Positions 26,810 to 29,009 of a stretch of 33,030 nt of DNA are shown here, piece by piece. Location of the stretch: IMG/VR virus record IMGVR_UViG_3300025860_000001. One strand, written 5' to 3'. Every line of letters starts with the position of its first letter. Within the stretch, counting starts at the first letter, position 1. The notes under the pieces were generated by a model, which did not search any database, was not told where the DNA came from, and saw only the letters and a program-made list of their open reading frames with translations. This DNA is from a virus. The translations under genes and the position numbers were made by a program.

Positions 26810-27429
26810 TAATAAGCACCTATTTTCAAGCGTAGGCCAGAGCCACTCGCGGTTGATCGACTGCTTGCGGTATTAACTCTAGCCACAGCAGCAGAATAAA
26901 GAGCAGCCCATGTTGAGGCTCTTTCATCTTCTTTTAAGTAAGGTGCGCTATGCAGCAAAGCACCATACAAATAAATATCGGGGTGATGGGTTAACAACCA
27001 GTTAGTGGTTGCTGAATCAGAAAGTGTGGGTATCTTGGCGTAATACATCAGTATCGCGCTGTACGAACCATCAGGCGTTGGAAATACCTCAAATTGTGAC
27101 GAGTTAAGGCTGTAGTTGGTTGGTGTACCTGTGGAGTTGTTACGCGCTGCTCGGCTTGCTTGCATAGTAGCCAGCGACATAAAATCTAAACTGCTTGTGC
27201 CTGTCGTAACCAAGTGAAATCTTATAGTCGATAACCAATCGGTGGGGATGCCTGTAAACTGGCTGTCAATGGTTGTTTCAGCGCGTGTCTCCATGCGCCA
27301 GTGTCTAATCTCATTATTGATTGACGATTCAGCCAACGAAATGAAATCAGGAATAGTAGCCGTTAGATCATCACGATTTAAGAAATTAGCGATTGATGTT
27401 TTTAACTCTGCGTAAGTTGAGATAGCCAT
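26809..27429 (-). CDS. Head-tail adaptor-like protein (206 aa)
   Basis: The N-terminus MAISTYAELKTSIANFLNRDDLTATIPDFISLAE resembles SU10-type adaptor proteins. ATGA/TAATG coupling on both sides. Confidence 0.5.
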   Translation of the reverse strand: MAISTYAELKTSIANFLNRDDLTATIPDFISLAESSINNEIRHWRMETRAETTIDSQFTGIPTDWLSTIRFHLVTTGTSSLDFMSLATMQASRAARNNSTGTPTNYSLNSSQFEVFPTPDGSYSAILMYYAKIPTLSDSATTNWLLTHHPDIYLYGALLHSAPYLKEDERASTWAALYSAAVARVNTASSRSTASGSGLRLKIGAY

Positions 27430-29009
27430 TAAATTAATTCCAATAATGATGCAGGGTTACTTATCTTTGTGTTTTTTGACTGCCCTATGTCGTAAAGCCC
27501 ACTTAAAAGCCCTTTAATCATTTCGGGCGTTGCAAACTCACGTTCACCTGTTTGCTCATTAACTCTAAATGGCAATATGTCTGCTCTGTCCCACCCTGTA
27601 TCGTCTGAGAAATTGCTTTCAAATGCTTGCTTGTTTTGTAGGTATTGCCTTTCTGCATTAGTCAGGTAAGCGTCTGTATTACCCTGCATATAAGATGATA
27701 GGTTAGATGGTTGGCCTGTTACGTTAGCCATTAAGCCTGCGCCTGTTGTTGCTACTGGGTTAGAGGATTTAATTGATGGTGATCTATACATACTATTGGA
27801 GATTGTATAGTCTTTATTTTTGCCTTTGTTCTGAACAAACCCAAAGCGTTTGTAAAACTCTGTTAGTCGCCTCTTAGAAGTGCCACCAAAATCTGTCGAT
27901 GGTGATAATGAAACAGTCTGCCCAGTTTTATCAGCATATTCGGCTAAATCATTCATTATTGAAGTGCCTACGCCCTTTGACTTCTCAGGAACAACAATAC
28001 GAGATAACTCTAAACCACCCTTCTTTTTGTTTTCAAATACGTCTAGCTTTACGCCCTGTTTATTAGCAGCCTTAATAATGTTATCTAATGATTTACCAAC
28101 CACCCCTGCATCAGCATCTTCACTACCCGTCACAGCTAGTAAACCGCCTGCGCCTGCTGCTGCCGTAGCTACTGGGTTTGATGCTAGTAGGTTAGATGAT
28201 GAAATCTTGGCAGGGTCAAATGCTGCGTCTGGGGAGCGAATGTTTTTAGTTTCAAAAGCAAGTGCTATATCATCAACACCTGAACCGCCAAACCATCCAG
28301 AGTCTTGCATATTCTTAAATATAACACCTTCATACCCATCTAGTTTAGCCTCTTTAGCTATACTATCTTGTATGTTCGCATCCCATGAGCTACCGCCCAT
28401 ATCAACTTCTTTAAAGTTAGAAGTATTTAAGTTGACTGAGAAGTTTGAACCTTCTTTAACTTCACTTATCCACTCGGAAGGTCTATATTGCCTGTTAGAG
28501 GTGTAAGTTGCAGGGTTTAGCTTCCTATTAGTTGCTGAGTAGTCCCACCCTGAATCTTTCATGTAATCAGGTAATTTTTCAACATTCTTAGGGCTTCTTA
28601 AAGGCTGTATTTCTTTATCACTTAACCCCCAGAAACTTAACTCGTCCATTGAGTTTGATTTCTGCTTCTGTGCATCATCAATACTCAGTCCATATTCAGA
28701 CTCAAATTTCTTTTTATTTATTACCTCGCTTGTTGGCCTATAAGCGTCTGCTGTACTTCTGTTCTTAGCAAAATAAAAACCATGCCTAGTGTCTTTAGCA
28801 CCAGACGATGATCCTAGCAAAGAGCTATCAAATTCCTTAAACGGAAGTCCTGTTTTCGGGTCTGCATCTACTGAAGTTCCATGATACCACTTTGTATCAG
28901 TATCAAAGCCCTGCTCTTTAGCCCTAGCCATTCTTGCAGGCGTAGACATATCCATAAGGCCACGAACAGCCTTAACACCTAAACCTATTGGGGTGCTTAA
29001 TAAACCCAT
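27429..29009 (-). CDS. Multidomain protein: H-Y-E (DT/PARP-like) ADP-ribosyltransferase + GNAT acetyltransferase + unknown C-terminal module
   Basis: KWYHGTS (H43), then HGFYFAKNRSTADAY (Y79, Y90). GNAT motif A in LSRIVVPEKSKGVGTSIMNDLAEYA and EFYKRFGF. The linker SNPVAT is repeated after each module. Confidence 0.65.
   Translation of the reverse strand: MGLLSTPIGLGVKAVRGLMDMSTPARMARAKEQGFDTDTKWYHGTSVDADPKTGLPFKEFDSSLLGSSSGAKDTRHGFYFAKNRSTADAYRPTSEVINKKKFESEYGLSIDDAQKQKSNSMDELSFWGLSDKEIQPLRSPKNVEKLPDYMKDSGWDYSATNRKLNPATYTSNRQYRPSEWISEVKEGSNFSVNLNTSNFKEVDMGGSSWDANIQDSIAKEAKLDGYEGVIFKNMQDSGWFGGSGVDDIALAFETKNIRSPDAAFDPAKISSSNLLASNPVATAAAGAGGLLAVTGSEDADAGVVGKSLDNIIKAANKQGVKLDVFENKKKGGLELSRIVVPEKSKGVGTSIMNDLAEYADKTGQTVSLSPSTDFGGTSKRRLTEFYKRFGFVQNKGKNKDYTISNSMYRSPSIKSSNPVATTGAGLMANVTGQPSNLSSYMQGNTDAYLTNAERQYLQNKQAFESNFSDDTGWDRADILPFRVNEQTGEREFATPEMIKGLLSGLYDIGQSKNTKISNPASLLELI

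Follow-up and report, generated by a model that had tools for sequence, protein, structure and literature searches.

The virus record IMGVR_UViG_3300025860_000001 of IMG/VR comprises 33,030 nucleotides of DNA, the whole of which was analysed here (the window). Between the gene of the large terminase subunit (terL) and that of a head-tail adaptor it contains an open reading frame (ORF) of 526 amino acids that joins an ADP-ribosyltransferase (ART) module of the ART-PolyVal family to a small acetyltransferase module of the GNAT superfamily. A first-pass annotation of this DNA had placed the ORF at 27429-29009, between terminase and adaptor, and both statements proved right. The ORF is read from the minus strand with an ATG start, and the plus-strand frame at 27429-29009 is closed by many stops and holds no ORF. 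The stop codon of the gene and the ATG of the adaptor gene overlap in TAATG, as do, at the other end, the stop of a 25-residue ORF and the ATG of the gene, so that the ORF is coupled to its neighbours. A protein from a metagenome collection (P0001) has the same length and is 99.8% identical. The positions of all features are collected in Table 1.

The ADP-ribosyltransferase module

Profile, pairwise and fold comparisons show that residues 22-270 are a member of the ART-PolyVal family (PF18760). From 5.8 billion proteins we recovered 186 relatives, many of them with precomputed PF18760 matches. The 89 co-linear modules found in them were reduced to 43 non-redundant ones, 35 of which were aligned together with the window module, and 29 of the resulting 36 modules matched PF18760 at E≤0.01 (best 2e-14). 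The allelic L017 module reaches 92.3 bits against PF18760, and BLASTP aligned it end to end with the window module at E=4e-19. The AlphaFold model of the module (pLDDT 87.3, pTM 0.76; these are the program's confidence measures) has a strand order that fits the ART fold, and in a search of predicted viral structures (BFVD) it matched proteins annotated as ART-PolyVal at E=1e-9 to 1e-4. The ART assignment made earlier from the letters is therefore upheld. That annotation had also called the module diphtheria toxin- and PARP-like, which holds for the clade, with its site of His, Tyr and an acidic residue, and does not hold as close kinship. In a sequence-profile search of the PDB, PARP10/12/14/15 and diphtheria toxin came out on top, with E=0.02-0.06, over the stretch from His to Tyr. 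No Alt-type (R-S-E) family was among the Pfam results for the protein.

According to Iyer et al. 2017 (PMC5512222), the site of the ART-PolyVal family is formed by a His in strand 1, a Tyr in strand 2 and an Asp in strand 5. All the motifs quoted in the first-pass annotation are present in the translation, and those of the ART module are KWYHGTSVDAD at residues 40-50, which includes H43, and HGFYFAKNRSTADAY at residues 76-90, which includes Y79. The glutamate of LDGYEGVIF had been put forward as one candidate for the catalytic acid with the number E226. It does align with the catalytic Asp of the family, and since LDGYEGVIF spans residues 223-231 its number is E227. In particular, GYEG is aligned with the GYDG of alleles that pass the Pfam threshold, and in the model E227 is placed directly before a predicted beta strand. 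The site of His, Tyr and acid is thus complete, Glu being a conservative acidic variant of the usual Asp, and H43, Y79 and E227 are the predicted catalytic triad.

Two further elements characterise the module. The helix that precedes strand 1, of the form S/T-x-x-R-M-x-R-A-x-x-x-G-F, is found in almost every ART module of the family, largely beyond the limits of the Pfam model. Its residues R26, R29, A30 and G34 are each at least 98% conserved, and in conservation the helix exceeds the catalytic Tyr. The second element is a helical insert of about 80 residues, which short modules of the family (118-130 residues) do not have. The match of the window protein to PF18760 covers model positions 9-132 of 140 and is interrupted by this insert.

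The shortened acetyltransferase module

The second module is a shortened variant of the GNAT superfamily (a mini-GNAT), not a canonical member. Among 18 homologous modules, 16 matched PF13508 (best 9e-8), 11 matched PF00583 and 11 the minimal Acetyltransf_CG family (PF14542). A profile search of the PDB with the GNAT module gave GNATs at E=0.003-0.05. This search was topped by designed repeat proteins (SAKe), which we disregarded as sums of weak repeats. The module shows LSRIVVPEKSKGVGTSIMNDLAEYA at residues 335-359 and EFYKRFGF at residues 384-391. In homologues the loop of motif A reads RxxGxG, to be compared with the GNAT rule R/Q-x-x-G-x-G/A followed by helix alpha-3, and a helix follows the K343-G348 loop in the structure model. 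In FYKRFGF, F385-Y386-K387 are invariant among the homologous modules. When the GNAT part of the low-confidence model was submitted to Foldseek, Naa50 (E=1.6e-4), GCN5/PCAF and AcrVA5 were retrieved, all with probability 1.00. The module resembles minimal GNATs, having about 105 residues and, ahead of motif A, one helix with two strands. Profile and fold matches thus bear out the acetyltransferase prediction of the first reading.

A module that occurs within giant polyvalent proteins of cultured phages shares 53-61% identity with the mini-GNAT. When the whole protein was compared to phage genomes by tblastn, a match was obtained in the GNAT region alone, and none for the ART module or the C-terminal domain. 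The alignment of GNAT and C-terminal regions (A5) was built from trimmed sequences; an earlier MAFFT alignment (A2) was discarded, as GNAT-only sequences were split across both domains.

Constant ends and variable modules in related phages

The two ends of the protein recur together with different modules. Most members of the family, including complete IMG/VR alleles, begin with the leader consensus MGLLSTPxxxGxKxxxGLLD, whichever module comes after it, and the leader may serve as a loading or ejection handle. The C-terminal module of about 100 residues that had been set apart earlier is confirmed as residues 426-526, a rare domain absent from Pfam, for which a PDB sequence-profile search gave matches at chance level only. 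Its profile retrieved 94 of 1.84 billion representative proteins, 34 of them at E≤1e-10, and the match lies nearly always at the extreme C-terminus of the protein. No relative was found in a scan of the genomes of 185,579 species. The Pfam domains that accompany it are ART-PolyVal (19 of 64), the PBECR5 nuclease (5), LPD23, LPD38 and minimal GNAT, and the recurring partners are all polyvalent-protein domains. No fold was read from the model of the domain, whose confidence is low (pLDDT 45-74).

The modules are separated by two linkers, in which the first-pass annotation had recognised a SNPVAT repeat. The repeat is real, and its first copy lies at residues 277-286 as proposed; the second, SNPVATTGAG, occupies residues 416-425 instead of 415-424. 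By our estimate, about 0.002 exact repeats of 6 residues would be expected by chance within 526 residues. Most relatives have the junction ...NIRSxxAxFDPAKxxSSNLLASNPVATxxAGxGGLLA... between their modules. Of this, IRSxxAxFDP seems to belong to the ART domain as its tail, and SNPVAT with the Gly/Ala stretch forms the linker proper, which is predicted to be disordered.

The position of the gene is as constant as its ends. In 3 metagenomic and 18 IMG/VR contigs (21 out of 21), the gene with the C-terminal domain runs up to the start of the adaptor gene. It comes after terL in every related contig with upstream sequence, and the MGLLSTP... leader is kept wherever the 5' end is present (21 loci). 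Complete alleles range from 353 to 987 amino acids, and their internal modules are ART-PolyVal, PBECR5, minimal GNAT or unassigned. For the flanking genes, identity to those of the window is mostly 85-97% in terL, with 68-72% at three loci, and 52-100% in the adaptor. Two alleles (P0002 and P0003) correspond to the window protein minus the GNAT cassette and join exactly at the junctions, junction 1 being the left border of the missing cassette. In contig L001 the DNA is 93% identical to the window between about residue 261 and a point past the stop codon, and the N-terminal module is a different one. The DNA of contig L003 shares short patches only (start codon, ARAKEQGF motif, junctions), with 79-90% identity. 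The fraction of identical codons among those encoding the same residue was 0.53 in terL, as against 0.62 both at the junctions and in the C-terminal domain. This is no clear synonymous-codon excess at the junctions, and exchange of modules there is plausible only from the positions of the breakpoints.

Homologues without the C-terminal domain were found in P22-like contigs, directly after the portal gene. Examples are the GNAT and ART proteins of L004 (8001-10532) and L005 (8001-9314). This fits a C-terminal domain specific to the virion type, and the domain occurs with one virion type only, as would be expected of a docking handle and not of a catalytic part. Four GNAT-bearing relatives (P0104, P0111, P0115 and P0117) have in common a different N-terminal region, MPSLLDDPEAYAF..., which is not present in the protein of L005 (P0112). 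This region may be the docking part for the P22-like virion type.

Judged from its gene content, the window is a temperate podophage, and it looks like most or all of a genome of about 33 kb. Besides the genes of temperate phages listed in Table 1, it carries terS, terL, tail fibre, portal, scaffold, major capsid protein, endolysin and holin genes. The relatives of the phage come from marine metagenomes. Megablast of window positions 10000-33030 against 50,697 phage genomes gave zero matches, and so there is no close cultured relative among them. In the gap between terL and the ORF lies the highly basic 25-residue ORF, which may encode a small DNA-binding or packaged peptide or may be no gene at all; at this place L001 holds an unrelated ORF of 55 residues and L003 none. 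Downstream of the adaptor gene and a Gp80-like gene, a protein of 163 residues consists of about six tandem units of about 17 residues (A-x-I-x-AVSxVTATGQ...). The PHROG search gave nothing for it, and its counterpart in contig L003 is 84% identical. The tail fibre (565 residues) contains long NTT/GxN repeat runs, and by eye its C-terminal end resembles an intramolecular-chaperone domain of the endosialidase type. Just its first ~70 residues are conserved among related contigs, and therefore the receptor-binding part is swapped too.

Table 1. Positions of the ORF, its parts and other genes in the window.
Feature	Coordinates	Strand	Basis or remark
Whole ORF: leader, ART-PolyVal module, linker, mini-GNAT, linker, C-terminal domain	27429..29009 (stop codon included)	minus	ORF reading of the window
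N-terminal leader, residues 1-21, MGLLSTPIGLGVKAVRGLMDM	28947..29009	minus	N-terminus of most homologues
ART-PolyVal module, residues 22-270, with pre-helix TPARMARAKEQGF and C-terminal tail NIRSPDAAFDP	28200..28946	minus	AlphaFold pLDDT 87.3
Helix before strand 1, residues 22-41	28886-28946	minus
H43 codon, strand 1, YHGT; first residue of predicted NAD+ site	28881..28883	minus	His in 119/123 modules; aligns with PARP10 YHGT (PDB profile)
Y79 codon, strand 2, GFYF; second residue of predicted site	28773..28775	minus	Y 71, W 11, F 8 of 94 modules; aligns with PARP10 GKGVYFA
Helical insert in ART module, ~80 residues, about residues 99-180	28470..28715	minus	helices at model residues 82-163 between core strands, pLDDT >90
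E227 codon, GYEGVIF; predicted catalytic acid	28329..28331	minus	column Asp in 55/105 modules
Junction 1, residues 271-304, SSNLLASNPVATAAAGAGGLLAVTGSEDADAGVV	28098..28199	minus	predicted disordered; between modules across the family
Mini-GNAT acetyltransferase, residues 305-411	27777..28097	minus	profile, alignment and fold matches
K343-S-K-G346-V-G348, pyrophosphate-binding loop of GNAT motif A	27966..27983	minus	G346 and G348 invariant in alignment A3
Junction 2, residues 412-425, SIKSSNPVATTGAG	27735..27776	minus	second copy of the SNPVAT linker
C-terminal domain, residues 426-526	27432..27734	minus	proposed virion-docking or ejection handle
SU10-type head-tail adaptor, downstream neighbour	26809..27429	minus	PF24175 SU10_adaptor, E=6e-35
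25-residue lysine-rich ORF MITKKPKKKAVKKPAKKPAKKGYYS in the gap after terL	29009..29086	minus	stop overlaps the ATG of the ORF in TAATG
Large terminase subunit, upstream neighbour	29146..30456	minus	phrog_3717, E=2.6e-58; PF04466 on orthologues
163-residue repeat protein	25933-26424	minus
Tail fibre, 565 residues	24211-25908	minus
CI-type S24 repressor	1589-2218
ERF	3310-4035
Integrase	6158-7162
NinG	31015-31644

Proposed role and known systems

As in polyvalent proteins, two effector-type domains are joined in one ORF, here between terL and adaptor. We think that the gene probably encodes a compact polyvalent effector, made late, loaded into the capsid and injected, that modifies the host by means of NAD+ and acetyl-CoA. 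The ART and GNAT activities are predicted from the domains, and packaging in the capsid and delivery to the host are suggested by the position of the gene and by the constant ends of its product. The protein would be synthesised late, alongside the virion proteins, and would be loaded into the capsid through the leader and the C-terminal domain. It might then pass through the tail with the DNA as a flexible chain, like beads on a string. In the new host the ART module with NAD+ and the GNAT module with acetyl-CoA would covalently change host macromolecules, and this modification would precede any expression of phage genes. The most likely targets would be proteins of defence systems or of the machinery of transcription and translation. 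For the GNAT module, the similarity in fold to AcrVA5 and to protein acetyltransferases makes a protein, possibly one involved in defence, the most likely target.

Several results weigh against this interpretation. The window protein matches PF18760 with E=2.3e-4 to 4.8e-4 and 22.4 bits, the cut-off being 31.2. The fold check that had been advised for the ART model, positive with viral models, gave non-significant results in the PDB, where PARP4, exotoxin A, tankyrase and CRM197 ranked first in Foldseek with E 0.5-5 and a template-modelling (TM) score <0.3. The helical insert accounts for the Pfam score below threshold and for the weak fold matches in the PDB. The GNAT module alone scores E=0.0035 against PF13508 (18 bits, with a cut-off of 27) and is missing the canonical N-terminal beta1-alpha1-alpha2 arm of the GNAT core (~150 residues), and the model of residues 296-526 has a pLDDT of 55 overall and of 64-77 in the GNAT part. 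As to the targets, a protein is only the most likely substrate of the ART module, because ARTs of the H-Y-D type also act on DNA, RNA and small molecules (DarT, Tpt1, Arr). Finally, the window showed neither a prohead protease nor a metallopeptidase module that could cut the modules apart, and their separation by a phage protease, which we also considered, is therefore unsupported.

A different explanation is that the enzyme is made late and is not packaged, and that its place of action is the producing cell or the lysogen, where it might, for instance, modify host or phage proteins in assembly; the position of the gene would then reflect co-regulation only. Gene order and translational coupling indicate co-expression, not incorporation, and T4 ModA and ModB are ARTs outside the virion. 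This explanation would hardly account for a constant leader and C-terminal domain amid swapped enzymatic modules. Nor would it account for a C-terminal domain tied to one virion type, when other phage types put the homologues after the portal gene, or for the same GNAT module inside DarB-like proteins of 3,764 residues; we regard it as unlikely. We consider it very unlikely that the product serves mainly as a structural or ejection protein at the head-tail junction and that its enzyme-like modules are inactive relics. The adjoining adaptor gene, the Lys or Gly that some modules of the family have at the catalytic-acid column, the ART score below the Pfam threshold and the hydrophobic, Gly/Ala-rich linkers would all suit such a protein. 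However, H43, Y79 and the acidic E227 are all kept, the GNAT GxG loop and FYKRFGF are invariant in the family, and a spread from 353 to 987 residues is unexpected where adaptors are 90-100% identical. Least probable of all is a toxin cargo, as proposed for the MuF polymorphic toxins, by which the particle would harm competitor cells and not aid infection: the phage is temperate (integrase, CI-type repressor, ERF), some alleles carry nuclease modules such as PBECR5 and the layout with variable cargo is like that of polymorphic toxins, but no immunity gene is evident beside the ORF, whose neighbours are terminase and adaptor, no MuF domain was found in the Pfam scan even at E≤10, and a killing effector would destroy the phage's own new host.

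A wider idea may be advanced tentatively, which we hold to be possible though less likely than not. In this lineage of marine temperate podophages, the place between terL and adaptor might be a hypervariable effector-loading site, in which the leader and a C-terminal domain not described before would be general handles that bring any cargo into the capsid and on through the tail. The SNPVAT-type junctions would allow modules to be swapped between phages, and the mini-GNAT, being AcrVA5-like, would acetylate a host defence protein at DNA entry.

The window protein is not of a new kind, because Iyer et al. 2017 already describe the ART family, its active site and the neighbouring GNAT; in phages a GNAT is there said to be typically the neighbour of ART-PolyVal. 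The comparison with polyvalent proteins drawn in the first-pass annotation agrees with that account. Packaging in the head has been predicted for these ART and GNAT families (PMC5512222, and Iyer et al. 2022, PMC9503650). Family, architecture and proposed role were thus all published in 2017, and the window protein is a compact further case, an incremental addition. The terms searched in that paper gave no mention of the constant leader, of the constant C-terminal domain or of a fixed hypervariable slot in front of an SU10-type adaptor, and experimental characterisation of any ART-PolyVal protein was not found in the literature searched.

With the ART-PolyVal domains of phage polyvalent proteins, whose prototype is the vRNAP of Roseovarius Plymouth podovirus 1 (CBX87992.1), the window protein shares the family, the H...Y...acid site, the late or virion setting and a GNAT partner. 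Giant ART-PolyVal proteins have up to 15 domains, whereas the window protein has 526 residues and two enzymatic modules. It is without a metallopeptidase or RNA polymerase module. It also differs from the usual ART-PolyVal in having Glu for Asp, as in PARP and diphtheria toxin, in the helical insert and in its lineage-specific leader and C-terminal domain. The DarB-like giant of Serratia phage Parlo (QBQ72230.1, 3,764 residues) has the same mini-GNAT, with 61% identity over residues 335-411, and phrog_10691, which contains DarB-like giants, matches the window protein at E=5e-33. The Parlo protein has about seven times the length of the window protein, and its gene lies near lysis genes at the end of the genome.

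T4 Alt is an ART that is packaged in the head, injected with the DNA and modifies host proteins at the start of infection (PMC5512222). The earlier comparison with Alt stands as a working model, in that the window protein may work alike. It does not stand as family membership, since Alt belongs to the R-S-E (Alt/VIP2) clade with its site of Arg, Ser-x-Ser and Glu-x-Glu, is without a GNAT and uses another packaging route, whereas the window protein, with H43/Y79/E227, is of the H-Y-E/D type. AcrVA5, a GNAT of about 95 residues from a mobile element, inactivates Cas12a by acetylation. Its structure (PDB 6iuf) is the best small match to the low-confidence GNAT model, with a target-normalised TM score of 0.68-0.76 and, for chain B, a root-mean-square deviation of 2.3 A over 91 columns. 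The likeness is structural only, with 17-18% identity and no appearance among the PDB sequence-profile results; AcrVA5 is moreover free-standing, whereas the GNAT of the window is a module of a gene in the virion module.

The MuF/SPP1 gp7 head proteins with fused effector domains are built on the same principle: a part that binds the virion stays constant, the enzymatic cargo joined to it varies, and the gene lies beside the packaging genes. In the window protein the constant parts are instead a 21-residue leader and a C-terminal domain outside Pfam, and the gene precedes the adaptor and does not follow the portal. If leader and C-terminal domain are indeed loading signals, they could be used to bring chosen cargo into phage particles. 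Compared with the giant polyvalent proteins, which are hard to handle, a protein of 526 residues with two enzymes offers a tractable model, in which clear catalytic residues can be mutated and for which natural alleles exist that miss or replace single modules, and it could be used to test packaging, injection and what such proteins modify.

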